DNA of 64,000 nt from Sphingomonas sp. (lineage in GTDB: Bacteria; Pseudomonadota; Alphaproteobacteria; Sphingomonadales; Sphingomonadaceae), in contig NZ_JBJMVI010000008.1 of assembly GCF_045810705.1 (NCBI RefSeq), positions 39,142 to 103,141 on the forward strand. The letters are read 5' to 3'. Positions 12,501 to 35,913 of the stretch are shown one piece after another (position 1 is the stretch's first letter; each line of letters starts with the position of its first letter). The position numbers and the translations under genes were made by a program. The notes beneath the pieces were generated by a model. The model did no database searches and was not told the DNA's origin. It worked only from the letters and a program-made list of their open reading frames with translations.

Positions 12501-12921
12501 GTAAGAACTCGCGCGCGAACAGATTGGCCTGCGCTTCAGCCCGTTCCTTCGGGCTGTAGGCGTCGATTTCGCCGACCACCGACAGTTCGGGTTCGGCCGG
12601 TGTCGCAAAATCAACATCGACCGAGCTGCAGCCTCCATGCGTGTCATGGAGCCGATGATGGCCGAATTCGTGAGCGATCGTGAAGCGCCGCGTTTCGAGC
12701 GCCAGGCCCATTGAATAAAGGATTCGGTTATCGTCGCGATCGTAGAGGCCGTCAGCTCCCTCCAGCAGGATATCGTCGGCCGGAAGCGGCATCAGCCGAG
12801 TGCCGGTCGCCTCCCGCGCGCGCTCGACCAGGTCGTCAGCGGCAGGAAGCTCGCCAGTCTCGGCAAACAGTTCCTCGTGCCAGGCGCGCGCTAGGCCCCT
12901 AATCTCGCTCCACATGCTCAT
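9544..12921 (-). CDS. ImmA/IrrE metallopeptidase - UvrD/PcrA SF1 helicase - AddB/RecB-like Fe-S PD-(D/E)xK domain fusion (1125 aa)
   Basis: RRFTIAHEFGH and EAQANLFAREFLLP (Peptidase M78); AGPGTGKT, GTFHAFG, VDEYQD, VGDARQSIYRFRGA, NYRS, MTVHASKGLEF, FFVALSRA (helicase motifs); HCPRQYY...CPNC...ACP (4 Cys); ATG 12921 overlaps the upstream stop. Confidence 0.9.
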   Translation of the reverse strand: MSMWSEIRGLARAWHEELFAETGELPAADDLVERAREATGTRLMPLPADDILLEGADGLYDRDDNRILYSMGLALETRRFTIAHEFGHHRLHDTHGGCSSVDVDFATPAEPELSVVGEIDAYSPKERAEAQANLFAREFLLPRPKLKAWWAAATESPSELAARLGLPLDLILQQLADAVLLPDEDHAKPQSTSPPPPDKTQLQAAEAGFGPHQVTAGPGTGKTRTLVARIKWLVDNDENPASIVALTYSNESSVDLSRRLRSEIGDLAPTIWSGTFHAFGLELLRKYGEVIGIKPNLQPLDRSDSLFLLEELLPSLSLEYYLDLREPLQPLKAVLNAISRAKDQLATPDDYARFAAAMTKHPSRDVEAAKAAEVARIYAVYQAALRERGDADFGDLIMRAHELLAEHAGVAAAVRAKTKHVLVDEYQDMNRASALFLKELVTPGQGPWVVGDARQSIYRFRGASPLNMTEFGQDFTGATFTDLGVNYRSGGRIVRTFSSFGAEMGKGVLPAMAHLEAHRGEERGSVHYSVAATFEAEAEGIAETIRAHVKVGDKFSNHVVLARSHTILAKLGAHLERSGIPSLYFGDFFERAEVRDYLSLLSVASEWEGLGILRIAQEEPYYVSLADIAALCTWRRNEKVSMIKALRRLDDVPDLSDAGRAGLGRLANDLAGSAFMTSPHGLILESLFIRGRARLGLLFEDSVSAQQARLAIYQLLQVAFDFRAPPKKDPKSAFLAHVRRLELLDEEKEFRRMPAAAAGIDAVRLMTVHASKGLEFPSVHLSTLTTRHFPAQNRHNPCPPPDGLVPNDPLMGREAEEEGLFFVALSRAKDSLYLSRPLRYGGWSTANPSRLLEPIAGHLDRPLNAAANWVEEGPRPPEYLPLAPLHPLPAEISIRAVESYQHCPRQYYYEFALGIGGFGPKSPYLGLQSTLRKTLSWARTIPDAEARQAGWRKEFDGHWESLGLTDGPLATVYRASAEQMVERAIELTSGKVYPVDRKMEVGGTTITARADHIAERDGGLVIQRLKTARLTKDKESAKARYGALLAMVGLDHPGLSISFEHVSLVDGQAKPDLIKADVPAKARAAIEAELASIGAGLFPPKPSDRNCPNCAFYFACPAHGIALGG

Positions 12922-13538
12922 TGCTCGGCATGCGAGCCCTTGGCCCAGAGAGCCTCCCGCCACTCGGCCTTCTGCGTTTCATCGATGGCGGCCGAAGCGA
13001 GGGCCTCCTCGAAGGTCTCCGTTTGGCGAACGGCCTTCTTGCCCGATTTCATCCGTGCGTTGGCAACGGTCGCCAATGGCGGTCCGCGTAGATGATGACG
13101 CACTACTGCGAGCGTGATGCCAAGGACATCACGCAATCGATCGAGGCACAATTGCGGAATGCTCTCAAAATCGATTTTCCTCCGGAACAGCTTCATCACG
13201 AAGGGCTCATCGAGGCCAATTCGAACGGCTACGTCGGCGTCGTTGAGGCCGGCGGATCGAGCAATCTGCGTCAGCGTCCCTTGCTTCGAATCTTCCTGAT
13301 GCAGGAGATTGAGCGCATGACTTACGGCCTCCGCAGCAAAGCGCTCGGCGTCGACGGACTGAGTGATCGGAAGCTCGATCTGCTCGGCCCACGTTGCAAA
13401 ATACTCGGCAAGCTCGCTCGCATGCTCCGGAAAAAGCTCGCACCAGCGCGAGAGCGCGGCATAGCTCGGCTCGTCCTCTTCGATCGCGATATGATCGAAA
13501 AGCTCGTCCAGGTGGATGTGGCGGGGTTTAACGGTCAT
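12918..13538 (-). CDS. Protein with helical N-terminal domain and XRE/Cro-like HTH (candidate anti-sigma or repressor)
   Basis: TLTQIARSAGLNDADVAVRIGLDEPFVMKLFRR resembles an XRE HTH; ATGA-coupled to both neighbours. Confidence 0.6.
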   Translation of the reverse strand: MTVKPRHIHLDELFDHIAIEEDEPSYAALSRWCELFPEHASELAEYFATWAEQIELPITQSVDAERFAAEAVSHALNLLHQEDSKQGTLTQIARSAGLNDADVAVRIGLDEPFVMKLFRRKIDFESIPQLCLDRLRDVLGITLAVVRHHLRGPPLATVANARMKSGKKAVRQTETFEEALASAAIDETQKAEWREALWAKGSHAEQ

Positions 13539-14428: not shown

Positions 14429-14697
14429 CGCGAACTCGGCTACGCGCCCGCACGACAGAACGATCGCAGCCGCTCGGCAGCCGCATACGCCACTCCCCCC
14501 AACTAAACCGAGCAGCTCTAAGTGACTCTGCATCAGCCGCGGAGTCAACGGCTGTGGCCCGCGACGAACTCGCTCGTTTTACATAACATCCGTTGCCGCG
14601 GCCTCTTAGCCCGGGGTGGCCGACAACTGCAGTTTCTGCTAGTTTCCGGACTGCTCGGTGAGTTGTGACGGCCCTCGTGTCGTCAGGGGGGTGTTCC

Positions 14698-16017
14698 ATG
14701 GCCGGGTTCGCACGCCAATTCCCGTTCGTCATCGTGGTTGTGTTCGCGATCCTCTTCGCCGCACCGGCGCTGAGCGCGCCCAGCGTCGTACCTTCTCCGC
14801 GCGTCACCGCCGCGGTGGTTGTCCGTGCTCAGCCGACCGCGAGTTCCGAAGCCCTCGCACGGATGCGGCCGGGCGAGTTTCTGCCGCTTCAGCAGGAAAT
14901 CTCCGGCTGGTTTCAGGTCCTGCTGCCCGACGGACGGACCGGCTACGTCAGCAAGGCATGGGCCGATATCGTTCCAGAAGCCGTCACCCCGGCACCACCG
15001 GTCTGGAAAATCCACTTTGTGGACGTCGGCACGGGACTGGCGACCTTTGTCGAAGGGCCCGACTTCGCACTCATCTACGATGGCGGCAGCAATGACGATT
15101 ATGCGCTCGGGTCGCGCAACCGGCTCCTCGCCTATCTTCACCGGGTACGGCCGGATCTCCAGGTCATTGATCACATTATTCTCAGTCACCCGCACCGCGA
15201 TCATGTCGAGCTGCTGCCCGACCTGTTCGACGGCTATCAGGTCCGCAACGTGTGGGATTCGGGGCGCATCTACGACATCTGCGGTTACCGCTCCTTTCTG
15301 CAGAAGATCAGCACCGAGCCCGGCGTCGTCTATCACGACGCTGCAAGCGAGGCGGGAGTCCACGCCGTGAGTCTGCCGGCGAAAGCCTGCTATGGTCACA
15401 CTGCGCCGCTCAGCGTGCACATTGCGGATGGCACGCCGATTACGCGGGGTCTGAAGGTGCCTCTCGGCGCCGGCGCTTCAATGACTTTTCTGACCGCCGA
15501 TGCCGGAAGCTATCCCGATCCGAACGAGAACAGCGTCGTCGTCAGGCTCGATCTCGGCGCCGACCGGTTCCTGTTCATGGGCGATGCTGAAGCCTCGCCG
15601 GATCGAGAGCCGCCATCAATTCCTCCACGCCCGAACTTTGCCGAGGGTCAGCTGCTGACCTGCTGCGCCGCAGATATCCAGGCGGATTTCATGGTTGTCG
15701 GGCATCACGGCAGCATGAGTTCATCGCGCGCGACGTTTCTGAATGCGGTCGGGGCAAAAATCTTTGTGATCTCGTCGGGACCGAAGGATTACGGGCGAGC
15801 CGGGCATCCCGTCACGCTTCCAGACCCTGAGGTCGTGCACGAGGTGGAGAGCCGCGGCACCCTTTGGCGGACCGATTTTGACGATCCAGATTGTCGGACC
15901 GACGCCGCCAAGATCGGTACCGACGCCGACAATAATGTTGGAGGCTGCGATAACATTCTCGTTCGGGTTCCCGCCAGCGGACCGCCGCTCGTCAATTACG
16001 AGCGAATCCACGACTGA
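14698..16017 (+). CDS. Secreted SH3b + ComEC/Rec2-like metallo-beta-lactamase-fold hydrolase
   Basis: Hydrophobic signal peptide; SH3b GWFQVLLPDGRTGYVSKAW; MBL motifs SHPHRDH, FMGDA, GHHGS, ISSG. Confidence 0.85.
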   Translation: MAGFARQFPFVIVVVFAILFAAPALSAPSVVPSPRVTAAVVVRAQPTASSEALARMRPGEFLPLQQEISGWFQVLLPDGRTGYVSKAWADIVPEAVTPAPPVWKIHFVDVGTGLATFVEGPDFALIYDGGSNDDYALGSRNRLLAYLHRVRPDLQVIDHIILSHPHRDHVELLPDLFDGYQVRNVWDSGRIYDICGYRSFLQKISTEPGVVYHDAASEAGVHAVSLPAKACYGHTAPLSVHIADGTPITRGLKVPLGAGASMTFLTADAGSYPDPNENSVVVRLDLGADRFLFMGDAEASPDREPPSIPPRPNFAEGQLLTCCAADIQADFMVVGHHGSMSSSRATFLNAVGAKIFVISSGPKDYGRAGHPVTLPDPEVVHEVESRGTLWRTDFDDPDCRTDAAKIGTDADNNVGGCDNILVRVPASGPPLVNYERIHD

Positions 16018-17132
16018 TGGAGAAAGCCCCAAATTCCAAAGCTAGCCGCAAGCTCGTCATTTGCTGCGACGGGACTTCAAACCAGTTCGCACGCGATCGG
16101 ACCAACGTTCTCAAGCTTGCCTTTGCGGCCCTCAACGACCCGGCGCGCCAGCTGCTTTATTATCATCCTGGCGTGGGGACGATGGCGCCTCCCGGGGTCT
16201 TCACCGGGATCGGCCAAAAGGTCATTCAGACTGTCGGTCTGGCCTTTGGCTATGGTCTCAAGGCCGACATCAGGGATGCATACACGTTTCTGATCAATCA
16301 CTATCGACCGGATGATGAAGTTTATATTTTCGGGTTCAGTCGCGGTGCCTACACGGCACGCGCGTTAGTCGCCCTCATCGCCGAATACGGGCTTCTGGCT
16401 CCCGGCAGCGACGCGCTTGTGCCCTACGCCATTAGACTTCTGTGGAGCTTTCACGGCGCGTCGGCCGCTAAGAAGGCAGCGGCGTTCAAACTGGCGGGAG
16501 AGTTCAAAAACTCGCTTTCAACCGGCAAGTGCAAGGTCCGGTTCCTGGGCGTCTGGGACACGGTCAGTTCGGTAGGGTGGATTGCCAATCCTCTATCCCT
16601 GCCAAACACGAGCGTGCTGCCGGGGGTCGACTCGATACGGCATGCAGTATCGATCGACGAGCGCCGGGCATTCTTCCGTACCAATCTCGTGAAGGCGGAC
16701 AGTGCTCGCGACATCCAAGAAGTTTGGTTTGTTGGCGACCATTGCGACATAGGAGGGGGCCATCCCGAGCTAGTGAGTGGACTCTCAAAGATTCCACTCA
16801 ATTGGATGATCTCAGAAGCGAAAAAGGCCGGGATGGCTTTTGACGATGCACGCATCGGTACAATCCTTGGGCAAACGTCGGGCGACTACGCAAAGCCTGA
16901 TCCAAATGCACCGATGCATGATGCAATGTGGCCCATCTGGTGGCTCGCCGAGTTCACCCCGAAGAAGCACTGGGACCATGTGACCGGCAGGACCCAATTT
17001 CGAGCCAACCTGTTCCGACGACGGCACTTCTCAAGCGCGCCAGTGATAGATGATAGCGCGTGGGAGCGCGCAAATGATTATGCGAAGCGCCTCCCAAAAG
17101 ACGCAGTGAGAAGGAGTTCAATCTACCATTAG
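16017..17132 (+). CDS. DUF2235 alpha/beta hydrolase (Tle1-like phospholipase family)
   Basis: LVICCDGT, YYHPGVGT, IFGFSRGAYTAR (GxSxG), FLGVWDTV, HAVSIDERR, VWFVGDHCDIGGG. Confidence 0.9.
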   Translation: MEKAPNSKASRKLVICCDGTSNQFARDRTNVLKLAFAALNDPARQLLYYHPGVGTMAPPGVFTGIGQKVIQTVGLAFGYGLKADIRDAYTFLINHYRPDDEVYIFGFSRGAYTARALVALIAEYGLLAPGSDALVPYAIRLLWSFHGASAAKKAAAFKLAGEFKNSLSTGKCKVRFLGVWDTVSSVGWIANPLSLPNTSVLPGVDSIRHAVSIDERRAFFRTNLVKADSARDIQEVWFVGDHCDIGGGHPELVSGLSKIPLNWMISEAKKAGMAFDDARIGTILGQTSGDYAKPDPNAPMHDAMWPIWWLAEFTPKKHWDHVTGRTQFRANLFRRRHFSSAPVIDDSAWERANDYAKRLPKDAVRRSSIYH

Positions 17133-18527: not shown

Positions 18528-18634
18528 CGCTCCCGGATGTTGCGCTGCCTTACCCTTCGCCTGCGACGCCCGCGACGCCGACAGCGCCTCGCGACATCCC
18601 CTCGCCCCAATGATACCAATTCCGCAATATCATC

Positions 18635-18650
18635 GTGATTATAATGAACT
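18635..18650 (+). promoter_or_regulatory. Cargo regulon motif copy A GTGATTATAATGAACT (upstream of TonB receptor)
   Basis: One of six KTG-N3-ATAATGAAST copies, all on the coding strand of the downstream gene. Confidence 0.75.
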
Positions 18651-18747
18651 TGATGAATGTTTTGCTTGTGTCACCCTCGCTGAAGGTGAGTTGCAGCCAT
18701 GAGCGCCGACATGGCTTCGGTCTCCAGCGGATTGGGTGGGAGCGCAC

Positions 18748-20709
18748 ATGTCGTCTGCTTGGCACCGCAGATTGCCTCTGGCCGTTGCGGCCGTATTCGC
18801 GGCGTTCCAGACGAGCGCAGCGCAGGCTCAGCACACATCCGACAATCCCGTAAAATCGGCTGACGACGCTTTCGGACTTAGACTCGGGTTGGAGTCGGTC
18901 GGACTCTACAGTCCAGGGTCAGTCCGCGGATTCAGCCCGATATCGGCTGGCAACGTGCGGATCGATGGCATGTATTTCGACCTGCAGGGGCCGCCCTCCG
19001 ATCGCGTCGTCGAGGGCTCGACGATTCACGTCGGTGTCAGCGAGATCGGCTATCCCTTTCCAGCGCCCACCGGCATCGCGGATTACAACCTGCGCAATGT
19101 GGGCGGCGATAAACCCTCCGCAACGGTCATCGCAAGCGCCGGGCCCTACGACGCACGGGGCATCAGCATCGATGGCAGCATTCCCCTGATCGGCAAGGAA
19201 CTCGTGTTGCCGATCGGGATAAGCACGCAAGTCAGCACGCAATCTTCCAAGGATGGAGCCTACTATCCGGGAATGACGTCTCGGGTCACGAGGATCGGCG
19301 CAACGCCCCAGTGGACGCCGAATTCGCACGTGACAGTGCGCGCGCTGATCGATTGGCAGAAAACCAGCGGGGCGAAAACCCTTCCGGAGTTCTTCGCCGC
19401 CGGCGATGTCCTGCCCCCACTGATCACAAAGGGCTACATCGCTCAGAATTGGGCCAAGGGGCGCAACAAGACATTGAACTTGGGAGGTCTGGTCACCGCA
19501 CAGCTGGCCAAAAACTGGCTGTTGCGAGCCGGGGTTTTCCGGTCGACGAATAACAACCCGGCAGGGTTCGCGGATCTCTATACGGGCATCCAACCGGACG
19601 GCCAATCCGATCATTTGGTTGTCGGCTTTCGGGATCAGAACGCTTCTTCCACGTCCGGGGAAGTGCGCCTCATTGGCACCTTCTTAACGAGCCATTGGCG
19701 CCAGCAGGTGATCCTCGCGGCTCGCGGACGCGACACCACAGCACATTTCGGCGGCAAGGATGTTGTGGATCTTGGTCCAGCCGACATCAGCAAGATCGTC
19801 CAAGCGCCGGAGCCCAACTTTACCTTTTCGGCGCGCTCCGCCGACCGGGCCAGACTGGGGAGCCTGGGGGCTGCCTACCGTGTCGACTGGAGCAGTAAGG
19901 GCGTGCTCGAGTTGGGGATCCAGAAGGAAGTTTATCGCGAGACCGCTAATAGTCCAGGGATCCCCCAATCGGAGATCTCGGCGCATCCTTTCCGGGCGTA
20001 CGCTAATGCGGCCTTCGCAGTCACACCAAAATTGACGCTTTACGGTGGTTATACCCAAGGCCTCGAGAATTCCGGTGTTGCGCCAAATTTTGCGCAGAAT
20101 AGCGGAGCGGTGCTGCCCGCCTCCCTGACATGGCAGTTCGATCTGGGCGCGCGCTATGCCGTGACACCCAAATTGAAGCTGATTGGCGGCGTGTTCGAAG
20201 TTGAAAAGCCCTATTTCAACCTGGATACGAGCAACTTCGACCGGCAGCTGGGCGTGCAGCAGGCGAAGGGCGTCGAGCTCTCGGTTGCAGGTGAGGTGAC
20301 CCAGAACCTCAACGTCAACATCGGGGCTCTCGCCGCCACCGTGGGCATCACCGGCCCGAATCTCGCCGCACAGGGTGTGGGCTCGATCGCCATCGGACAA
20401 CCGCATCTGACCTTCGTGGCCGCGGCCAACTACGCCCTGCCGCGCTGGCATACGGCGTCGATCGACGTGCGGTTCTTGTACATTGGGACCGCCCCGGAAA
20501 CGTTGGACAATCGCGTGTCCACGTCGCCCGCGAGCATCCTGAATATCGGAGGACGGTACAAATTCACCGCCTTCGGCAGGAACAACACCCTTCGTGTCCA
20601 GATCCAGAACGTCCTGGCTACCAATGTCTGGCAGCAACTGAGCACCCCGGGAGTCTTCCAATGGCCCGGTCCACGCAGGATTTTCGCCTATCTCACGACC
20701 GACCTTTAG
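18748..20709 (+). CDS. TonB-dependent outer-membrane receptor
   Basis: Signal peptide, plug GLYSPGSVRGF...GNVRIDGMYF, alternating beta-strands, GVFEVEKPY, QQAKGVELSVAG. Confidence 0.9.
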   Translation: MSSAWHRRLPLAVAAVFAAFQTSAAQAQHTSDNPVKSADDAFGLRLGLESVGLYSPGSVRGFSPISAGNVRIDGMYFDLQGPPSDRVVEGSTIHVGVSEIGYPFPAPTGIADYNLRNVGGDKPSATVIASAGPYDARGISIDGSIPLIGKELVLPIGISTQVSTQSSKDGAYYPGMTSRVTRIGATPQWTPNSHVTVRALIDWQKTSGAKTLPEFFAAGDVLPPLITKGYIAQNWAKGRNKTLNLGGLVTAQLAKNWLLRAGVFRSTNNNPAGFADLYTGIQPDGQSDHLVVGFRDQNASSTSGEVRLIGTFLTSHWRQQVILAARGRDTTAHFGGKDVVDLGPADISKIVQAPEPNFTFSARSADRARLGSLGAAYRVDWSSKGVLELGIQKEVYRETANSPGIPQSEISAHPFRAYANAAFAVTPKLTLYGGYTQGLENSGVAPNFAQNSGAVLPASLTWQFDLGARYAVTPKLKLIGGVFEVEKPYFNLDTSNFDRQLGVQQAKGVELSVAGEVTQNLNVNIGALAATVGITGPNLAAQGVGSIAIGQPHLTFVAAANYALPRWHTASIDVRFLYIGTAPETLDNRVSTSPASILNIGGRYKFTAFGRNNTLRVQIQNVLATNVWQQLSTPGVFQWPGPRRIFAYLTTDL

Positions 20710-20895
20710 TGATCACCCCCTAGAGGGGATCAACGGAAGTAAAGGCAGAACAGGCACTTAGAGCGTTCGTCAGCGCCAACTGGTTCCAAGAGCGGCTGCG
20801 GGCCAATAAGGCCAGGCGCATGTCGAAGCTCATCAATCCGCCGCTGCTCGACGGCAAGGCTCCGGCAGCGTGCGCAGCCGCGAGCCTGCCGCAAC

Positions 20896-21195
20896 TTACG
20901 GGATGTATTTCTCGGGCAATGGTGCAACGTCCGATTCGGCCTGCACTATGATGCTCGTGACGCGCCAGGTCATGCAGGTCCGGTCCTTGTCCGCGGGGCC
21001 GGTGATCGCCGCGTCGAGCGCTGCCGCAATGGCGTTGGGCTCGGATGGGAGGGCGCAGCTCGCAGCCGCCTCCGGCGATTGCGAACTCGTGGCGATCGCG
21101 CGAGCCTCCGATACCTGCTGCGCGTAGGCAATGTGGGGGGAGACCGCCGCGACAAATCCCAAGACGATTGCGGTTGCCGCAAATGTTCTATTCAC
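20896..21195 (-). pseudogene. Internally deleted, in-frame paralog of 24157..24738
   Basis: CALPSEP..AALDAAITGPADKDRTCM joins directly to WRVTSIIVQAES..PLPEKYIP; the paralog has about 88 extra residues at this junction. Confidence 0.75.
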
Positions 21196-21235
21196 GAACG
21201 TGTGCCCTTTCGATCGATGGCCGGCCCCGGCTGCT

Positions 21236-21251
21236 ACTTCATTATTTTCAC
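21236..21251 (-). promoter_or_regulatory. Cargo regulon motif copy B GTGAAAATAATGAAGT
   Basis: Upstream of the 20896..21195 gene. Confidence 0.75.
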
Positions 21252-21348
21252 GAATATAGTGCCAACAGAGCACGATCTCACCTGTGCCGCAGGGGAGATG
21301 AGCAGTCTTGTGCCGAAACCCTGGTCGTGCGCGCGCGGCATGATCCTG

Positions 21349-21364
21349 TTGCGAATAATGAACT
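21349..21364 (+). promoter_or_regulatory. Cargo regulon motif copy C TTGCGAATAATGAACT
   Basis: Upstream of the aminotransferase-RidA operon; continues TGTGGAA like copy F. Confidence 0.7.
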
Positions 21365-21389
21365 TGTGGAAGTGGCCTAATCTCCTGAG

Positions 21390-22577
21390 ATGGATCGCAT
21401 GGACCACCCCTTTGCTATGGATCGCGCTGCCGCGGTCTGGGCCGATCTTGGAGGCGCGACCTTCCTGAATTTCGCAGGGCACGCCGCCATGCCGCGCGCG
21501 GCGGTCGCGGCGGCCTGCGCGTCAGCGGCCTTGAAGGGTCGACCGGTCGGCGGGGATACGGCAAGCTTTTTCGATACATCCGAGCGTGTGCGCTCGTCGC
21601 TGGCGCAGCTGCTGGACGCCAGGGCCGGCGAAATCGCATTGACGACGGGCGCCGGGCCTAGCGCGGCCATCGTCGCCCTCGGCCTGTCCTGGGGACCCGG
21701 CGACGAGGTTCTGGTCTTGGAGGGTGACTTCCCGGTCCATTGGGCCACCTGGGCCCCAATGGAGGCGCGGGAGGGGCTGAAGGTCAAAGCTGTCCGACGA
21801 GAAGGCGACGTTGTGGATGACGTTCTCCAGGCGCTTGGACCCAAGACCCGGCTCGTTTCGATCAGCCATGTCGGGTTCGACGATGGAGCGCTTCTTGACG
21901 CCGGGCGCCTCTGCGCGGAGTGCCGGCGCCGGGGCGTTCTTGTGCTGCTGGATGCGAGCCAGTCGTGTGGGGCCGTCCCGCTGAGAGTCCAGGCTCTGGG
22001 CGCCGATTTCGTTGTCGGCGTTGGTTACAAGTATCTCTTGGGTCCTTGGGGTCTCGGCTTCCTTTGGACCTCGGCGGAGCGTTGGGCCGCGATGCGGCCG
22101 GCGCCGTGGAACTGGCTGTCCCAAGAAGTCCGCGTGTTCTCAGAATTGAACTTCGCCAACCCGGCGGCCTCAGTTGAGGCCAAGCGGTGGGACGCCGCGC
22201 AGATGACGGGGCCCTACAACATCAATCTCGCGGCCTTCGCTGCGTCACTGGATCAGGTCGTGGCGTGGGGGCCGGAACAGGTTTTTGCGCACGTCCATCA
22301 GCTGATCGAGCGCCTGTTCTCAGGGTTGCCCGCCGTTTGCCGACCAACCAGTCCACGTCGTGCCGGTGAGCGCGGTCCTTTCGGGTGCTTCGCGGCCGCA
22401 GACGACGCCGGGACCGACGACCTCTATGCGGCGCTTCAGCGCGAGCGGATCATCGTCAGCCGCCGAGGCAGCGCCATCCGCGTGGCGCCTCACCTCTTGA
22501 ACGACGCTGCCGACATCGACCGCTTGCTGGCCGTGGCGAACGACTTGGCCGGAGCGAGGCAGGAAACCTCAATATGA
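21390..22577 (+). CDS. Class V PLP-dependent enzyme (cysteine desulfurase/isopenicillin N epimerase-like)
   Basis: FLNFAG, LLDASQSCG, GYKYLLGPWGLGFL (PLP Lys), IRVAPHLLN. Confidence 0.9.
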   Translation: MDRMDHPFAMDRAAAVWADLGGATFLNFAGHAAMPRAAVAAACASAALKGRPVGGDTASFFDTSERVRSSLAQLLDARAGEIALTTGAGPSAAIVALGLSWGPGDEVLVLEGDFPVHWATWAPMEAREGLKVKAVRREGDVVDDVLQALGPKTRLVSISHVGFDDGALLDAGRLCAECRRRGVLVLLDASQSCGAVPLRVQALGADFVVGVGYKYLLGPWGLGFLWTSAERWAAMRPAPWNWLSQEVRVFSELNFANPAASVEAKRWDAAQMTGPYNINLAAFAASLDQVVAWGPEQVFAHVHQLIERLFSGLPAVCRPTSPRRAGERGPFGCFAAADDAGTDDLYAALQRERIIVSRRGSAIRVAPHLLNDAADIDRLLAVANDLAGARQETSI

Positions 22578-23053
22578 GCACCGAGGCGCGCCTTCGAGAG
22601 CTCGGAATCGATCTTCCCAACATCCCACCGCCGATCGCCGACGGGTACGTCCCAAAGTTCGCGCCGTGGGCTCGCAGCGGCGATCACATTTCCCTCTCGG
22701 GACGCCTGGCCAAGACTGGCGATCAGCTGCTGGTGGGGAAGGTCGGTGGGGATATTACCCTAGGCATCGCGAAATCGGCCGCCCGGGACGTCGCCATCGA
22801 ACTGCTTGGCGTCCTCAAGACCGCGGTCGGCGACCTCGATCACGTTTGCCAGGTGGCCCGCATGCTCGTCATGGTCAACGGCGCCCCAGGCTTCAATGAG
22901 CCGCACCGGGTCGCTGATGGTGCCTCGGAGCTGTTGGTCGAGGTCTTCGGCGAGCGCGGCCTTCACGCGCGTAGCGCCCTGGTTGCCTCGGATCTGCCAT
23001 TTGGCGCCGCGATCGAAATCGACCTTGTCGTTGAAGTCGCGAGCGCCGGCTAG
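22574..23053 (+). CDS. RidA/YjgF family protein (long subfamily)
   Basis: MSTEARLRELGIDLP...SG...GKVG...ADGASELLVEVFGERGLHARSA...LPFGAAIEIDLVV; ATG overlaps the upstream TGA. Confidence 0.9.
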   Translation: MSTEARLRELGIDLPNIPPPIADGYVPKFAPWARSGDHISLSGRLAKTGDQLLVGKVGGDITLGIAKSAARDVAIELLGVLKTAVGDLDHVCQVARMLVMVNGAPGFNEPHRVADGASELLVEVFGERGLHARSALVASDLPFGAAIEIDLVVEVASAG

Positions 23054-23081
23054 CGGGAGAGCCGTCTGGAAACGAACTGCC

Positions 23082-23462
23082 TCAGGCCCTGGCGATCAGA
23101 TCCATCTCGACGCTTGCGCCGAGCGGCAGAGCGACGACGCACACGGTCGTGCGGGCCGGAAAGGGCGCGGAGAATTGGCGGGCGTAGATGGCGTTAATAG
23201 CCGGATAGTCCTCCATTCGAGTGACGAAGATGCGCACCGAGATCACACTGTCGAAGCTCATGGAGGCCGTCCGGAGCAACGCGGCGACGTTGAGGAACAG
23301 CTGCTCGGTTTCCGCAATGACGCCGCCCGCCGTCAGCTTGCCAGTTGCTGAATCCTGGCCGACCTGACCGCTCATATATAGGAAGCCGTCAACCTCGATC
23401 GCCTGGGAATAGGGACCGACCGGCGCGGCGAGTTCCGGCGATGTCACTGCAGTCTTGCTCAT
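23082..23462 (-). CDS. RidA family imine/enamine deaminase
   Basis: APVGPYSQAI, YMSGQVG, INAIYARQF, PFPARTTVCVVALPLGASVEMDLIA. Confidence 0.92.
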   Translation of the reverse strand: MSKTAVTSPELAAPVGPYSQAIEVDGFLYMSGQVGQDSATGKLTAGGVIAETEQLFLNVAALLRTASMSFDSVISVRIFVTRMEDYPAINAIYARQFSAPFPARTTVCVVALPLGASVEMDLIARA

Positions 23463-23505
23463 CGAAAAACCTCTTCGGGCTGGGGCCTGTGCGCGAACCA
23501 CAACG

Positions 23506-23958
23506 TCACTTGAAAACAATCTCGCGCACGAGCTCTGTGCCAAGGACTTTCCTGTCCTCATTACGACGGACCCGAGCCTGGTTTTGACACTCGGCGCTGC
23601 AAATGACTTTTTCCGTCACGGCTTCAAACGCGTCGGCCTTATCGCCGATGTCCCCCGCATAGGACGCGTAGTCCTTGAAGGTGATTTCGAGATACACGTT
23701 GGGATCATCCACGGATTTCGGAGAGGACCGAAAGACCTTGTAACCGATGATGAGCCCGGCTTTCTTGGCGGCTTCCATGGTCGGCACCCAGGTCGAGGTC
23801 ACCCATTTCATGTAGTTATCAAAGTGCCCGTACTGGACCTGGATGTAGTCCACCTCAGTGACCGGGCCGTAGCTAAATTGGCGGGCGTCCTGAGCGATGG
23901 CACTGCCGGGGATCGGCGATGCTGCCAGAAAGGCAGACAGGGCTACAGCGATTTTCAT
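23506..23958 (-). CDS. Secreted hypothetical protein (dimeric alpha/beta-barrel-like)
   Basis: 150 aa with signal peptide; YMKWV...WVPTMEAAKKAGLIIGYKVF. Confidence 0.6.
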   Translation of the reverse strand: MKIAVALSAFLAASPIPGSAIAQDARQFSYGPVTEVDYIQVQYGHFDNYMKWVTSTWVPTMEAAKKAGLIIGYKVFRSSPKSVDDPNVYLEITFKDYASYAGDIGDKADAFEAVTEKVICSAECQNQARVRRNEDRKVLGTELVREIVFK

Positions 23959-24055
23959 ATTTGGTTACTCCCCGAACCTAATCATTGCGCGCAGCACTCG
24001 GCCGCCCGATTGTTCTCCAACGCTGCCCGAATACGCGCTGCCAAGAACCTTACAC

Positions 24056-24071
24056 AGTTCATTATCATCAC
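24056..24071 (-). promoter_or_regulatory. Cargo regulon motif copy D GTGATGATAATGAACT
   Basis: Upstream of the 23958 > RidA operon. Confidence 0.75.
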
Positions 24072-24156
24072 GGATATACTTCCGGATTAGCATGATCTCG
24101 CAGATGGTCGGAAGCCGGACCTGGCCCCCCGTTCGCTCAGATCGGGCTCGCCAATC

Positions 24157-24738
24157 CTAGGGCAAATATTCCTCGGGCAGGGGCGCCGAGGGCGATTCAG
24201 CCTGCACGGTAATGCCCGCGATTCGCCAACCGCCGGCCTCCTTGATCGCCTGGATGCTGTTGATGCCGCGCCCCACGGCTTTCCCTTCGACGCGAAGCAT
24301 GTAGAGGCTCCACAAATTCGACACCGCGCCGTAGCGATCAATGCGAAAATTCAGCTGCTTTTCTTCCAAGCTGATGTGACCGCGGGATCTGGTGCGTGCG
24401 ATCCAATCGTCGAGGCTCTGAAGCCTGTAGTTTGACCTCTCATCCGCGCCGGCCGGAGCGAACATCAAGCGCGCTTCGGGAATGAAAAGAGCCTTCATGC
24501 AGGCCCTGTCCTTGTCCGCGGGCCCGGAGATCGCGGCATCGAGCGCGGCAGGAATACCCCAAGGCTCCGACGGCAGCGCGCAGTCGGCAACCGGCGCGGC
24601 CGCCATCACACTCGACTGCGAGTCCCTATCTCTCCTCGCCAAAGCCTTGGCCGCCGGAGGGCGTTGCTCGTCATGAGCCGAGGCGGTTGAAGCGAAGACG
24701 CTCGCGGCAGCGAGGAAGGTGAAGAGATTGCGAGGCAT
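24157..24738 (-). CDS. Secreted NTF2/SnoaL-like protein
   Basis: MPRNLFTFLAAAS signal; ALFIPEARL...LDDWI...IDRYGAVSNLWSLY...RGINSIQ...GGWRI. Confidence 0.7.
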   Translation of the reverse strand: MPRNLFTFLAAASVFASTASAHDEQRPPAAKALARRDRDSQSSVMAAAPVADCALPSEPWGIPAALDAAISGPADKDRACMKALFIPEARLMFAPAGADERSNYRLQSLDDWIARTRSRGHISLEEKQLNFRIDRYGAVSNLWSLYMLRVEGKAVGRGINSIQAIKEAGGWRIAGITVQAESPSAPLPEEYLP

Positions 24739-24802
24739 GGATATTCCCTGAGACCGAGGACCTTCGGATAGCCCCCTTTGCTGCCGCTCGGAAAAACCCG
24801 CT

Positions 24803-24818
24803 ACTTCATTATTGGCAC
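24803..24818 (-). promoter_or_regulatory. Cargo regulon motif copy E GTGCCAATAATGAAGT
   Basis: Upstream of 24738. Confidence 0.7.
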
Positions 24819-24951
24819 GATAAAGATGCGTCTGAAGCACGATCTTATTCGTGGCGATGGCGCCTGATGTACGGCTCGTCTGGCAAGGTTTTCCGGGGTG
24901 GGAGAACCCTAGTACTGAAGGTGTAAGTCGCCCTTCGATCCTGCAAACTGG

Positions 24952-25842
24952 CTAGTTTCCTGGGGCGTCAAACAGATCGCCAATGCCGTCTTCAAGCAGT
25001 TTGACCGCTTTCTCCAGTGCTCCGAGTTGCCCAGCCCGCACGACCGCGACCGCCATCCGCAGGTCAAACGATGGTACCCGCAACACTTCGAACGCACCAC
25101 GAGCGTTGTTTCTCGCAATGACGCTCGCCGGCAGCAATCCCAGTCCATATCCTGATTGCACGAACTCGAGTTGTAGATGGATGTTGTGGATCTCGGCGGC
25201 GATCGTCGGGGTGTAGCCCGCCCGCTCAAGATGATCGACGAGGCTTGCCCGGAGAAAACAGCCAAGAGGGTTGAGAACCCAAGGTGCACCGCCCAGGCTC
25301 TTCCAATTGCCGTCGACCTTCTCTGCCGCGCTTTTGACGATCTCCACGCGATCCGTCGCAACGATATTCGTCAGGAGCGGCGCAGGCGCGGTCCGTCCGA
25401 CGGGCAGCGCAACGACCGCCACGTCCAGTTCGCCGGCGAGCAATCGGCTGAACAATGCACTTGCGCCCTCGCTCAACAGCCGCAGTCTGAGCCGCGGGAA
25501 TGTTTCCGTCAGCGCCCGAGTGGGTCCGGTAAGCGGTCCCACCGCCAGCGGGTGCGCGAGCCCGACGCGCAGGACGCCGTGAGGTTCGGTCTCGCTCGAG
25601 GTCAGGGATTTCAACGCCTCGGCCCCTTGGAGCAGACCTAGCGCTTGTTCGAGGACCCGAGCGCCGAGCGCGTTCAGGCGCGGCGGCTTGACCGAGCGGT
25701 CAAGCAGTTCGGCGCCCAGCGCATCTTCCAGCCTCTGCAGCTGGCGGGTGACCGCCGACGGCGTCCGGCACAGCCGGTCGGCGGCGGCGGCGATGGATCC
25801 CGCTCGCGCAAACTCCACGAGGGCGGGCAGATCATCGAACAT
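24952..25842 (-). CDS. LysR-type transcriptional regulator
   Basis: FARAGSIAAAADRLCRTPSAVTRQLQRLEDALGAELLDR HTH plus substrate-binding domain. Confidence 0.95.
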   Translation of the reverse strand: MFDDLPALVEFARAGSIAAAADRLCRTPSAVTRQLQRLEDALGAELLDRSVKPPRLNALGARVLEQALGLLQGAEALKSLTSSETEPHGVLRVGLAHPLAVGPLTGPTRALTETFPRLRLRLLSEGASALFSRLLAGELDVAVVALPVGRTAPAPLLTNIVATDRVEIVKSAAEKVDGNWKSLGGAPWVLNPLGCFLRASLVDHLERAGYTPTIAAEIHNIHLQLEFVQSGYGLGLLPASVIARNNARGAFEVLRVPSFDLRMAVAVVRAGQLGALEKAVKLLEDGIGDLFDAPGN

Positions 25843-25907
25843 GAAACCTCCTCAAGCATCTTTTGAACGCGGCCGACAGATCAACGTGCGCACATGGTAT
25901 GATAATA

Positions 25908-25923
25908 GTGATAATAATGAAGT
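25908..25923 (+). promoter_or_regulatory. Cargo regulon motif copy F GTGATAATAATGAAGT
   Basis: In the divergent gap between lysR and the GNAT/creatininase unit. Confidence 0.75.
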
Positions 25924-26201
25924 TGTGGAAAGTTTCTTCTCGTCGGAAAGGGAGGAATGATCGGTTTACTTGAAGTCTCAACCTGCGAGCGCGGAGGTCG
26001 CCGCGGCGTACTCGGCTCGACGGCGCGCCTGATTTTGAGGCGATGATCGACGATTTCTACACACCGGCCTGGGCCGACGCCCACGAGAAGTTCGGCGCGG
26101 ACTTGGTGGCCGGGCTCGCCCGGCTCGCCCGCCGGCTGCGGCCCCGCGACGCTGCCAAAGATGGCGGTCGCGGCAAGCGAGGCTTTGCTAAACATCAGCC
26201 G

Positions 26202-26687
26202 ATGCCTGAATCGATCACGATTGCATCGGAGGCCGCCATCGGCGCCGATGCTCAATATTGTCTCAGCGAATATTATCGCGAGCTGCAGGAGCGGTTCGAC
26301 GGCGGCTTCGACCCGGGTCTCAGCCTCCTTCCCTCGCTCGACGAATTCGCACCGCCGCGCGGTATGTTCCTCCTCGTCAGGTTGAACGGCCAGCCTGTGG
26401 GCTGCGGCGGGCTGAAGCCGATTTCGAAGGAAGCGGCTTACCTCAAGCGGATGTGGATCGCTTCAGGCGCACGCGGCCGCGGTCTTGCTCGCCGGCTGCT
26501 TTCGGCGCTTGAAGATGACGCGCGAGTGATGGGCTATTCCATCGTGCGACTGGAGACGAACAAGTCGCTCATCGAAGCGCAACAGCTTTATCGCTCCTCG
26601 GGCTATAGGGAAGTCGCGCCATTCAACGACGAGCGATACGCCCATCACTGGTTCGAAAAGCGGCTCGATCGGATATCGAAAAGATAA
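26202..26687 (+). CDS. GNAT N-acetyltransferase
   Basis: GQPVGCGGLK...LKRMWIASGARGRGLARRLL...RLETNKSL.EAQQLYRSSGY; start chosen at MPESITI, though the ORF is open from 26043. Confidence 0.88.
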   Translation: MPESITIASEAAIGADAQYCLSEYYRELQERFDGGFDPGLSLLPSLDEFAPPRGMFLLVRLNGQPVGCGGLKPISKEAAYLKRMWIASGARGRGLARRLLSALEDDARVMGYSIVRLETNKSLIEAQQLYRSSGYREVAPFNDERYAHHWFEKRLDRISKR

Positions 26688-26729
26688 GTGCCCCTGGGGC
26701 TCGGCTCACTTGGCCAATGGGAAACTGAC

Positions 26730-27617
26730 ATGCGCATTGCCTCGGCTCCGCGGTTCTTGCTGACGTCTATCGCGTGCGGAACGGCGGCCCTGATATTGCC
26801 CGCTGGATCGGCGCACGCCGCTCAATCCGCTCGTGCCGAGCGGTGCCCAAAGAACGACCAGGTCGAGTTCGAGAAGATGACTTGGGTGGAACTGAAATGC
26901 GCGATTGCAGCGGGAAAGACGACGGCGCTCATCTATACCGGCGGCGTCGAGCAACGGGGACCGCAGAGCGCGAACGGAGGCCATAACTTCATTGCCCATG
27001 AGACGGTCGAAGCGATTGCGAGGAAACTGGGCAATGCGATCTTCCTGCCCGTCCTGCCCTACACGCCCAATGATGCGGAATCGATCCCGGGCACCATCGG
27101 GATCACGGATGAGCTCCTCGGCGCAATGCTCGAACGCATCGCGCAACAAGCCGCGCTCAACGGCTTCCGCAACATTATCATCATGGGCGATCACGGTGGC
27201 GGCCAGCCGCAGGTCTACCAGAATGTCGCCAAGAAACTCGATGGGCAACTGAGCGGGGGCGCTCGCGTGTTTTACTGTGACCAGGTCTACAGGCCCGCGA
27301 ATGATGCGTTCGATCATTACCTGACGCAGCACGGCTTGCCGATCGGGCTTCACGGCTACCTCTTCGACACTTCAGAACTGATGTATCTCGACAAGGGTAA
27401 TACTTGGGTGCGCAGGGATCTGGTTCCCTCCGCCATCGGTGATCCCGTCGTCGGTCAGACCTCAGCGGATGGCAAGGCGCAGTTCGGTCCGCACAGTCCG
27501 CAAAACGGGATCCTCGGCGATGCGCGCCGTTCGACGGAAGAGCTTGGCAAGGTCGCAATCGACATGAAGGTCGATTTCGCGGTGAGGCAAATTCACAGCG
27601 TTCTGCCGTCCTCATGA
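26730..27617 (+). CDS. Creatininase/amidohydrolase family protein with signal peptide
   Basis: MTWVELK, GGVEQRGP, IIIMGDHGG, GLHGYLFDTSELMY, GILGD. Confidence 0.85.
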   Translation: MRIASAPRFLLTSIACGTAALILPAGSAHAAQSARAERCPKNDQVEFEKMTWVELKCAIAAGKTTALIYTGGVEQRGPQSANGGHNFIAHETVEAIARKLGNAIFLPVLPYTPNDAESIPGTIGITDELLGAMLERIAQQAALNGFRNIIIMGDHGGGQPQVYQNVAKKLDGQLSGGARVFYCDQVYRPANDAFDHYLTQHGLPIGLHGYLFDTSELMYLDKGNTWVRRDLVPSAIGDPVVGQTSADGKAQFGPHSPQNGILGDARRSTEELGKVAIDMKVDFAVRQIHSVLPSS

Positions 27618-27879
27618 CCTCATTGACGGCGCGAGTCCGAGAAATGGCCTTTTTGTGCCGCCCAGCCAGCCTAATGACCGCTTTCGACCCAATGCGGACA
27701 CGCAGGCACGGCGAAGGAAGTGTTCCACTGCGTTTAGCGCGGCACTTCGGCATGTCGACCTTTTCTGCGCGCAACAGCAAGATGCATCCCATTCGCAGCT
27801 CGACCTAGCTGCAATGTACTAATGGACCGAAGAGCGAGTGTGGGCGTGCGCCACCGGGGGGGTCTCGAAAGGCACCCAG

Positions 27880-29649
27880 ATGCGGTACGCATTAGCTAGC
27901 CAGTCACCTCCAAACGCCAAACGTTGCGCAATCTACACGCGCAAGAGTTCGGAGCAGGGATTGGAGCACAATTTCAGCTCCCTGGAGGCACAACGGGAGA
28001 TCTGTTCCGCATACATCGCCAGTCAGAGTCCAAACGGCTGGAGTGAGCTGCCGAAGCACTACGATGATGGTGGGTATTCCGGCGGGACTTTAATGCGACC
28101 CGCGCTCCAGGAGCTGCTTGCCGATGTAGAAGCTGGTGTCGTCGATAATATCGTGATTTACAAATTGGATCGCATCAGCCGCAGCCTGATCGATTTCATT
28201 CGGCTGATGGACCTGTTGCAATCCTATGATGTCGGGTTTGTCGCCGTTACGCAGAACTTCGACACAGGAGATTCGACCGGAAGACTGATCCTCAACGTCT
28301 TGCTCACCTTCGCGCAGTTTGAGCGCGAGATCGCTTCCGACCGTCTCAAGGACAAGTTTACCGCCATGCGACAGCGCGGAATGTTTGTCGGTGGAAACGT
28401 GCCCTTCGGGTTCAATCTCCTGGATAAAAAGCTGGTCATAAATCCAGCTGAAGCCGCGGTCGTCCGATGGATGTTCAATCGGTATCTAGAGACAAAAGGC
28501 ATGGCTCGGATCGCGAAGGAGCTGCGCGCAAAGGGCGTCGTGCGGAGAAGCCGGATCTCCAAAAGAGGCAGGCTTGTGCAAGGTCGGCCCATCTCCACTT
28601 CGGCCATCTTCTATATGCTCGCCAACCCGATCTACGTTGGTGAGGTTTTCAACAACGGAAAGGTGTATCCAGGCCTGCACGAACCGATCGTAGACGGGGC
28701 GGTTTGGGACGAGGTGCAAGCCCTCCGCGCGAAGCGCACGCGCGCAAAGGTGGTGGAAATTTACAAAACCGACCTCCTGCGAGACCTAATGTATGATTGC
28801 TACGGCAGAAAGATGGGGGTCTACCGAGATCATCGCTATGCCCAGGTTCGCCGCTATTACATCTCAAATCAGTCAGAATGGGGCCGCCGAAACGGGGTTA
28901 GGCGCTATCGCACGAAAGCAGATGAGTTGGAGCAACTCGTGGTCGCCGCCATCGCATCGCACTTTGCAGATCGTGAGCGCATTCGGTCGATGCTCATCAG
29001 GGCCGGCATCCGAGACGAACGCCTGAACAAGTTATCGACCGTCGGACAGGGGGCATCGCGATGGTTCGCGACAGCGTCCAACCGGCAAAAGATTTGTGTC
29101 CTGCAAACTCTAATCGCACGAATTGAGCTAAGCGGAACCCTAATTAAGATAATGGTGCGCGTGGCTGAGATCCCCAGAATCCTGCAGTGGGATAGAGTGG
29201 GGTTATTTCGCGCGGATTTGCAGACCCGTACTCGATCAGAAGACACGGAAGTGATCGAAGTACCCGCAACTACTATCTGCATGAAGCGTGAGTTGACTCT
29301 GTTACTAAAGAAGCGCGGGCAAGAGCAGCAAAGCACGCCCAATCGCAGGCTGATTGGTTTGCTGTCGAAAGCGCGGCAAGCTCAAGCGGCGCTAGATGAA
29401 CGAACGGTTCGGAATGTGACCGAACTTGCCGCGAAGGTGCACTGCCATCCGAAGCGCTTCACTCGAGTTGCCCGCCTCAACTATTTGGCCCCCGACATCG
29501 TAGCAGCCATTCGTGATGGCACGCAGCCACCCGACCTGAATTGCAAGACGCTCATGTCTGTGGATCTGCCGATGGATTGGAGTTTGCAAAGACGACTTCT
29601 TGGCTTTGCGGATCAGCCCGATTTTTTACGCGCGGCGCCAGGCTGGTAA
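27880..29649 (+). CDS. Second large serine recombinase
   Basis: RCAIYTRKSS, YDDGGYSG, IYKLDRISRS, TFAQFERE, and a C-terminal RLNYLAPDIVAAIRDG tail similar to the left recombinase. Confidence 0.93.
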   Translation: MRYALASQSPPNAKRCAIYTRKSSEQGLEHNFSSLEAQREICSAYIASQSPNGWSELPKHYDDGGYSGGTLMRPALQELLADVEAGVVDNIVIYKLDRISRSLIDFIRLMDLLQSYDVGFVAVTQNFDTGDSTGRLILNVLLTFAQFEREIASDRLKDKFTAMRQRGMFVGGNVPFGFNLLDKKLVINPAEAAVVRWMFNRYLETKGMARIAKELRAKGVVRRSRISKRGRLVQGRPISTSAIFYMLANPIYVGEVFNNGKVYPGLHEPIVDGAVWDEVQALRAKRTRAKVVEIYKTDLLRDLMYDCYGRKMGVYRDHRYAQVRRYYISNQSEWGRRNGVRRYRTKADELEQLVVAAIASHFADRERIRSMLIRAGIRDERLNKLSTVGQGASRWFATASNRQKICVLQTLIARIELSGTLIKIMVRVAEIPRILQWDRVGLFRADLQTRTRSEDTEVIEVPATTICMKRELTLLLKKRGQEQQSTPNRRLIGLLSKARQAQAALDERTVRNVTELAAKVHCHPKRFTRVARLNYLAPDIVAAIRDGTQPPDLNCKTLMSVDLPMDWSLQRRLLGFADQPDFLRAAPGW

Positions 29650-35729: not shown

Positions 35730-35913
35730 GAGCCCTCCCATTTAACGCGCGCGAAACCCCCTAGCGCGCCTCAGACACGTGAGAATTCGGTGAGACATTT
35801 TCAAGAACGAGCCATGAACATCTGAGCGTCGGAATCGGGCGATTCATCGCGTCGGACAAGCAGGAGCACAAATCGCTGTTCCTGCGGACAAGGGACTGTT
35901 TCAATCGAAAGGG

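Follow-up and report, generated by a model that had tools for sequence, protein, structure and literature searches.

In the system of NodD and the nod boxes, a long conserved element precedes each nod operon, one copy being divergent from the gene of the LysR-type transcriptional regulator (LTTR), and the whole is carried on a transmissible symbiosis island or plasmid. The nod box itself is a 47-bp consensus with ATC-N9-GAT repeats. Mobile or propagated promoters are homologous promoter segments that stand before non-homologous genes. Here we describe a locus with features of both, located in a 64,000-nt stretch of DNA from Sphingomonas sp. (contig NZ_JBJMVI010000008.1, positions 39,142 to 103,141; the whole of this stretch is called the window). 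A 41-bp module is present there in six copies, and we consider it probable that this module is the operator of the LysR encoded at 24952-25842, with a 16-bp motif as its promoter-proximal half. In the published layout of LTTR operators, four half-sites lie in successive major grooves with the T-N11-A pattern, which derives from NodD sites, and OxyR has 15-bp inverted repeats centred at -66, -44 and -35 (PMC5002191).

By analogy, the system closest in logic to this locus is NodD with its nod boxes. Both have an LTTR gene with a divergent copy of a cis-element of ~45 bp and further copies before target operons, both have tandem T-N11-A boxes on one face of the helix, and in both the regulator, the boxes and the cargo are co-transferred horizontally. 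Unlike the nod box, the module has no ATC-N9-GAT repeats and does not qualify as one; the window LysR is not a NodD ortholog, its cargo consists of hydrolases and detoxification functions instead of nodulation genes, and its hosts are free-living soil bacteria of at least seven phyla. Because both the box sequence and the protein differ, the module system lies outside the NodD family.

A sequence-only reading of this DNA had reported six copies of the 16-bp motif, and their positions and strands were confirmed: KTGNNNATAATGAAST has exactly six matches in the 64 kb, at 18635 (+), 21236-21251 (-), 21349 (+), 24056-24071 (-), 24803-24818 (-) and 25908 (+). The same reading held six copies to be improbable by chance, in agreement with our counts, as KTGNNNATAATGAAST did not occur in 100 dinucleotide-preserving shuffles and its 8-mer core ATAATGAA is absent from the remainder of the 64 kb. 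Allowing three mismatches in KTGNNNATAATGAAST added just scattered weak matches (19 found versus 8.1 expected), and a profile hidden Markov model (HMM) of the module recovered the same six sites in the window and no others at E<1e-3. The motif is thus real, but it had been taken for the regulatory site, and alignment of the upstream regions indicates that it is only the right half of a conserved unit with fixed spacing, RTCRTGC-N18-GTG-N3-ATAATGAAST. The left element, (A/G)TC(G/A)TGC, stands exactly 18 nt before GTG in six of six copies. Conservation among the window copies ends at the 41-bp span, and the flanks are unrelated. The copies and the regulator gene are:

18610..18650, + strand: module copy 1, ATGATAC-N18-GTGATTATAATGAACT, preceding the TonB-dependent receptor gene; more degenerate in its left element than the other five; HMM score 34 bits
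21236..21276, - strand: module copy 2, ATCGTGC-N18-GTGAAAATAATGAAGT, before a 100-aa secreted protein; box 1 is a perfect GTGC-N7-GCAC; 37 bits
21324..21364, + strand: module copy 3, GTCGTGC-N18-TTGCGAATAATGAACT, before an operon of a class-V aminotransferase and a Rid-like protein; 36 bits
24056..24096, - strand: module copy 4, ATCATGC-N18-GTGATGATAATGAACT, before an operon of a 150-aa secreted protein and RidA; 26 bits
24803..24843, - strand: module copy 5, ATCGTGC-N18-GTGCCAATAATGAAGT, just past the lysR stop codon and before a SnoaL-like secreted protein; 34 bits
25883..25923, + strand: module copy 6, AACGTGC-N18-GTGATAATAATGAAGT, divergent from lysR and before an operon of a GNAT acetyltransferase and a creatininase-family protein; 43 bits
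24952..25842, - strand: LysR-type transcriptional regulator of 296 aa, with PF00126 HTH_1 (5.8e-16) and PF03466 LysR_substrate (1.9e-24); presumed binder of the module

All six copies face the next gene start downstream, and from 18.6 to 27.6 kb no transcription unit is without its motif copy. The gap from motif to gene is ~86-98 nt for copy 1 (TonB-dependent receptor), 40 nt for copy 2 (100-aa secreted protein), 25 nt for copy 3 (aminotransferase), 97 nt for copy 4 (150-aa secreted protein), 64 nt for copy 5 (SnoaL-like protein) and 119 nt for copy 6 (GNAT gene). The range of 25-100 nt proposed earlier was therefore nearly right, since it covers most gaps (25-98 nt) and misses copy 6. The copy said to be divergent from lysR is copy 6, which lies 66 nt upstream of that gene, at what is the ancestral module position in other genomes. 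This copy would serve both autoregulation and control of the GNAT-creatininase operon, and the five further copies would put the other five operons under the same LysR. Copies 2 and 3 (21236-21364) stand back to back, with 47 bp between their left elements (21270-21276 and 21324-21330) and no lysR in between, a predicted divergent double operator.

Within the module a half-site recurs at every helical turn (11 bp); with the G of GTG taken as offset 0, the four are GTGC (offset -22), GCAm (-11), GTGA (0) and GAAs (+11). They form two T-N11-A boxes, an upstream box 1 (TGC-N7-GCA) and a box 2 (TGA-N7-GAA, an imperfect dyad), and the distance between box centres is 22 bp both in the six window copies and in about 230 from other loci. 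The half-sites are separated by A/T tracts that keep the same phase (-15, -4 and +7) and would be places for DNA bending. The skeleton TGC-N7-GCA-N8-GTG-N8-GAA, which leaves out the ATAAT core, finds exactly the six window sites with at most one mismatch (~0.5 expected). A palindrome over the whole module (ATCA-N3-TGAT) was also considered and rejected, as it is present in copy 1 only.

The protein encoded by the window lysR has the architecture of the LysR-type regulators, with an N-terminal HTH_1 winged helix and a C-terminal LysR_substrate domain in about 300 aa. Its nearest solved structures are BenM and CatM (best PDB matches, E about 2e-14). In NCBIfam it matched no equivalog and no NodD model, and an exact-protein look-up found no identical protein on record. 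At E<=1e-40 its orthogroup comprises at least 1507 clusters, which bear only the generic label 'LysR family' and come almost all from soil metagenomes and poorly cultured phyla (Acidobacteriota, Verrucomicrobiota, Gemmatimonadota, Eremiobacterota). A literature search found no paper that contains the motif sequence, and none that brings LysR, RidA, quinone oxidoreductase and Acidobacteria together.

To relate this protein to the module, one search was seeded with the DNA and one with the protein. The 41-bp pattern was compared with one genome per species (185,579 species) and found at least 119 loci, versus ~9 expected by our own estimate from information content; two of them, L013 and L096 (L-numbers are labels of the loci analysed), are chance matches of the pattern. 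Among the matches listed, 93 of 119 have a LysR ortholog (>=55% identity) inside the 8-kb tile, tiles without one mostly have the module at the tile edge, and the open reading frame (ORF) divergent from the module is a LysR ortholog in 78 of 104 cases. In the other direction, the LysR protein was compared with metagenome contigs without use of the DNA motif, keeping orthologs that were >=60% identical and had >=130 nt of DNA ahead of the gene. The module is divergent and adjacent in 55 of these 59 orthologs, at a gap of 15-72 nt with a mode of ~45 nt from the start codon, and three of the four misses have the same module in visibly degenerate form, with several substitutions. It is present in 0 of 7 distant LysRs (27-35% identity). 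These data show that the module is tightly co-inherited with this LysR orthogroup across phyla, and they support the earlier proposal that the local LysR would control all six units. We infer that LysR binds the module and regulates in a given direction.

The protein-seeded orthologs were also used as an unbiased set for per-base conservation, counted over 46 copies. Their consensus is ATCGTGC-N6-GGCA-N8-GTGA-N2-ATAATGAAST, and the module register is constant throughout. Nine bases are present in 46/46 copies (T-21, G-20, A-9, A-6, T-2, T+1, A+6, T+10 and G+11), and A+13 in 45/46. The anchor pair of box 1, T-21 and A-9, is thus invariant. The T-N11-A that had been noticed inside each motif is likewise real, with T at motif position 2 in 46/46 and A at position 14 in 45/46, and 22 bp farther upstream stands another T-N11-A box of greater symmetry. 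Over all the DNA gathered there were 236 HMM hits, of which 230 gave usable copies, 156 adjoining lysR and 74 away from it, and the conservation of the core is equal in both groups.

This arrangement corresponds to LTTR operators in three respects: T-N11-A lies in an interrupted dyad; two boxes lie about two helical turns apart (22 bp from centre to centre), compatible with a tetramer footprint of ~45-60 bp; and an intergenic position divergent from the regulator's gene is found for copy 6, for 55/59 orthologs and for 156/230 usable copies. The operators of OxyR, GltC, BenM and CatM show the same 15-bp interrupted repeats ~21-22 bp apart, the same four half-sites in successive major grooves, and an operator that overlaps the divergent regulator gene. 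Kinship with these regulators is at the family level only, and the half-site is GTGC in the module versus ATAG or ATAC in theirs. Unlike in usual LTTR operators, the promoter-proximal box of the module is the better conserved one, the reverse of the usual trend, and no third box was found.

How the core promoter is placed relative to the boxes was examined under two models. Model B, towards which we lean tentatively, puts a -35 element, TTGTGG, at offsets 15-20 right after the motif, then a spacer of 17 bp, and at 38-43 a weak -10 (TAYAAA or sAnnnT). The boxes would then be at about -65 and -43, the canonical positions of the recognition site and the activation site, much like the OxyR centres at -66 and -44; the 16-mer would be the activation site abutting the -35, and LysR an inducer-dependent activator. 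The usual positions of LTTR sites (recognition at ~-65, activation at ~-35/-45) would be matched if the promoter is TTGTGG-N17-TAYAAA, and would not be if ATAAT is the -10 as in model A. Model B is favoured by the conservation of TTG at offsets 15-17 (97/75/94%) and of A39 (86-89%), and by the finding that translation starts at offset 49-50 in the family of 160-aa secreted proteins, in the L123 GNAT gene and at the second ATG of the window aminotransferase. This start-codon peak is seen in three gene families, with no clear peak overall; as a hint only, it would fit leaderless transcripts under model B. The model is weakened by window copies 2 and 5, which have no TTG and no -10 at offsets 38-43, and by copy 2 in particular, whose start codon (offset 56) and Shine-Dalgarno sequence (offsets 41-46) would not be downstream of the transcription start that the model predicts, but level with it or ahead of it.

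Model A, which we regard as possible with more reserve, takes NATAAT inside the 16-mer as the -10, so that transcription would begin just past the motif, the boxes would span -39 to -3, and LysR would act by repression until its ligand releases it. In its favour, A6 and T10 of ATAAT are present in 46/46 copies with three variable inner positions, as in a -10 hexamer, and ATAAT is the sole promoter-like element common to all six window copies. It lacks a -35, and an LTTR on -39 to -3 would have an unusual geometry. A consensus promoter scan of the window gave partial hits overlapping copies 2, 4, 5 and 6, and in three representative loci no complete sigma-70 consensus promoter was found at the module, which fits a regulator-dependent promoter.

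The pattern scan found the module in soil and peat metagenome-assembled genomes of Acidobacteriota (several classes), Verrucomicrobiota, Gemmatimonadota, Eremiobacterota and Acidimicrobiales, in Gammaproteobacteria (Steroidobacteraceae, Burkholderiaceae, Usitatibacter) and in Alphaproteobacteria (Allosphingosinicella, Sphingomicrobium, Phenylobacterium, Rhizomicrobium). The module and the same regulator occur in soil bacteria of at least seven phyla, with one cultured strain among the matches listed, Acidicapsa dinghuensis 4GSKX, where the locus is on contig NZ_JAGSYH010000004.1 near 672.1 kb. Complete metagenome-assembled chromosomes that carry the island include OY969905.1, OY968773.1 and OY969555.1. 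The genes behind the modules belong to about 15 unrelated families, mostly detoxification enzymes, hydrolases and secreted proteins: MDR-type quinone oxidoreductase (qor), RidA, PhzF-like isomerase, DinB-fold proteins, GST, S9 and S15 peptidases, creatininase-family hydrolase, a 150-160-aa secreted protein, SnoaL-like secreted protein, FtsX-type permease, TonB-dependent receptor and GNAT. In the closest relatives (Sphingomonadales-like, LysR 83-93% identical), modules are found on both sides of lysR and have been kept while the genes behind them were shuffled. The locus was also found in eight public metatranscriptome runs of soil and rhizosphere RNA (L139:1250-2000, L017:4300-5400). These are assembled unitigs whose ends lie at k-1 overlaps (graph branch points), and contigs span the whole module. 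In the four runs compared with L139, depth on the lysR side exceeds that on the target-gene side ~3-10-fold, a pattern that would be compatible with the system being uninduced in bulk soil.

Several traces indicate how the module has spread. A qor gene start follows 53 modules, and 49 of these reading frames end within the available DNA; about 16/49 are full length (>=321 codons), and 33/49 are stubs of 8-287 codons, fused to other sequence or internally deleted. Such a qor fossil, beginning MPHAIQIRQTGGPEVL..., is seen in L023 (-, 100-200 nt past the module), L017:4650-5130, L028, L036, L078 and L101. In L023, L139 and most Acidobacteriota-type copies, a small conserved ORF encoding MLLWKP (ATG CTT TTG TGG AAA CCC TGA) lies about 40-60 nt past the motif and ends on the qor start codon, and TTGTGGAA is present twice there, directly past the motif and again before the qor ATG. 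One near-identical signal peptide, MNR..VMV.VAG.AVLGMTATLAGAQT, is joined to four or more distinct mature proteins, among them S9 and S15 peptidases, a SnoaL-like protein and a 263-aa protein, and promoter, leader and signal peptide seem to move as one piece. Its carriers are:

L105:4023-6167 and L105:1183-1728: signal-peptide carriers
L085:4160-6124: signal-peptide carrier
L051: signal-peptide carrier
L101:4495-5517: signal-peptide carrier

A 5.0-Mb Verrucomicrobiae contig and a 3.5-Mb Gammaproteobacteria contig have 93% nucleotide identity over ~2.9 kb of the lysR-module-cargo segment (L018 versus L017, and L005 and L100), which points to a very recent transfer between phyla. Regulator, operator and variable cargo would travel jointly between soil bacteria. 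A further idea, which we put forward as speculative and rather doubtful, is that the spreading unit is also an operator-promoter cassette, a segment of ~100-150 nt with LysR operator, core promoter and leader that has repeatedly recombined before new genes. As with propagated promoters, the same ~100-150 nt of promoter and leader are found before about 15 unrelated gene families, often with the 5' fossil of the previous gene; unlike them, the module segment carries the operator of a co-transferred regulator, so that each copy would enrol a gene in one regulon.

Some observations weigh against the module being the operator of this LysR. The entire support consists of co-occurrence and conservation, an HMM-detectable module is missing from four of the 59 orthologs, box 2 is far less symmetric than box 1, and the interior of box 2 (ATAAT) is conserved beyond what LTTR contacts alone require. 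In addition, many copies are related by recent horizontal transfer, and two phyla at 93% nucleotide identity mean that some of the conservation is shared ancestry and not selection. Against ancestry as the whole story stand the divergence among the six copies of the window and the shuffling in the relatives. A rival explanation, in which the copies are duplication relics or a small promoter-carrying mobile repeat with no present shared regulation, can draw on the fact that the module has clearly been copied, bringing qor 5' stubs and a common signal peptide before unrelated genes, and that copies 2 and 5 precede paralogs. We consider it very unlikely, because similarity in the window is confined to 41 bp with unrelated flanks and because the register and the anchor bases are kept across phyla and far from lysR; moreover, no terminal repeats, target duplications or transposase accompany the copies, and a gene start is always faced. 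An operator of some other regulator, such as Fur, Zur, Irr or an alternative sigma factor, appears similarly improbable. The site is AT-rich, copy 6 superficially resembles GATAAT repeats and a TonB-dependent receptor is among the targets, but the motif is directional and not a 19-bp palindrome, the targets are not metal-uptake genes, and no fur, irr or sigma gene is linked, as opposed to the LysR ortholog linked in 93 of the 119 loci listed and in 55 of 59 orthologs. The sequence-only reading had itself named a Fur/Irr site as one alternative; the Fur box (19-bp GATAATGATAATCATTATC palindrome) and the Irr ICE box (TTTAGAA-N3-TTCTAAA) have 0 matches in the window within 3 mismatches.

The motif could also be no more than a strong sigma-70 -10 (NATAAT with conserved flanks) of well-expressed genes with no dedicated regulator. 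ATAAT is invariant in the six copies, its A and T that would correspond to -11 and -7 occur in 46/46 copies of the unbiased set, and the sequence-only reading had already pointed to a TATAAT-like core. We give this explanation very little credit, as it accounts neither for the invariant GTG and GAAST flanks nor for ATCGTGC and GCA at a fixed 18-25 nt upstream, the four half-sites phased at 11 bp recover all six sites alone, the module is exclusive to one LysR orthogroup, no -35 accompanies it, and there is no copy in the other 57 kb of the window, which must hold many promoters. That the conserved sequence acts as RNA, as a 5' leader element, a riboswitch or a leader-peptide signal, is hardly credible. 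It is always on the coding strand, and in other phyla about 60 nt of leader past the motif are conserved, including the small MLLWKP ORF before qor; yet Rfam has no match in the window (E up to 1) or in 12 related loci (gathering thresholds), the six window leaders have no shared or unusually stable fold (z-scores -0.7 to +1.7), conservation in the window ends where the motif ends, and the ATCGTGC/GCA half lies beside the divergent lysR, upstream of any plausible transcription start. Two sigma-factor sites were rejected separately: for sigma-54 (GG-N10-GC across N18), 'GGCA' has a variable first G and GT stands in place of the -12 GC, and for an ECF-sigma site there is no linked sigma gene.

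Under the reading of the module as LysR operator, the predicted targets in the window are the following:

18736..20709, + strand: TonB-dependent receptor-like outer-membrane barrel, behind copy 1; a homolog follows the module in L073
20896..21198, - strand: secreted protein of 100 aa, behind copy 2; paralogous to 24157-24738, with an internal deletion
21390..23053, + strand: operon of class-V aminotransferase (21390-22577) and YjgF/Rid-like protein (22577-23053), behind copy 3
23082..23958, - strand: operon of a 150-aa secreted protein of no known family (23506-23958) and RidA (23082-23462), behind copy 4
24157..24738, - strand: SnoaL/lumazine-binding-like secreted protein, behind copy 5; homologs behind modules in L105 and L120
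26043..27617, + strand: operon of GNAT acetyltransferase (26043-26687) and creatininase-family amidohydrolase (26688-27617), behind copy 6

Module-linked homologs exist elsewhere for most of these genes; the 150-aa secreted protein and RidA families are both behind modules at many other loci, and GNAT and creatininase-family genes are also module-linked in L120, L121, L030, L040 and L001. The 100-aa protein of copy 2 and the 193-aa SnoaL-like protein of copy 5 are paralogs, residues 83-170 being missing from the former, possibly a duplicate in decay. A 29-codon upstream ORF, MIGLLEVSTCERGGRRGVLGSTARLILRR, follows copy 6 at 25957-26046 (+) and precedes the GNAT gene. Its first letters, ATGATCG, are also those with which GNAT begins, and its stop codon and the GNAT ATG overlap; its own start (motif offset 49) resembles the original start codon, copied to a displaced position. 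The block had been described as a catabolic cargo, which our data do not establish, the genes looking like a variable set of detoxification, hydrolase and secreted-protein functions. The cargo looks like a variable kit and not like one catabolic pathway, and its members here and elsewhere (quinone oxidoreductase, RidA, PhzF-like, DinB, GST, S9/S15 peptidases, creatininase-like amidohydrolase, class-V aminotransferase) suggest that the system responds to some small molecule, reactive or xenobiotic.

The part of the window that contains the block (2000-37000) is lower in GC (55-60% versus 63-68%), and the block is found there beside a large serine recombinase and among genes of mobile and defence type, and housekeeping-type genes (PhaC, AcrB) begin past about 37 kb. 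The neighbouring features are:

4166-5800, - strand: large serine recombinase
9544-12963: 1139-aa M78-UvrD-PD-(D/E)XK protein
14665-16017: SH3-metallo-beta-lactamase-fold protein
16017-17132: Tle1-like phospholipase
27838-29649, + strand: large serine recombinase
34413-35741: ParB-DNA methylase fusion

The 9.4-kb block gave no match by megablast against a plasmid collection. Taken together, the 93% identity across phyla, the traces of propagation and the low-GC setting beside a recombinase bear on the last of the earlier claims, that of a self-contained regulon which has moved as a block: for the family it has good support, and for the window copy it is plausible.

The unusual features of this system are its spread across phyla and the cassette-like propagation of operator plus promoter. 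If the cassette idea were true, the result would be a self-extending regulon across phyla, whose membership differs in almost every genome while regulator and operator remain nearly invariant, and in which the copied segment sometimes brings a qor stub or a ready-made signal peptide. It would then be a natural example of regulon growth by an operator-promoter cassette copied before new genes, and the pair of contigs at 93% nucleotide identity is in any case an example of very recent gene flow between phyla. For a large uncharacterised LysR orthogroup, the module provides a precise candidate operator, with which the putative regulon may be read from the sequence of any carrier genome, and the cultured carrier Acidicapsa dinghuensis 4GSKX makes experiments possible.

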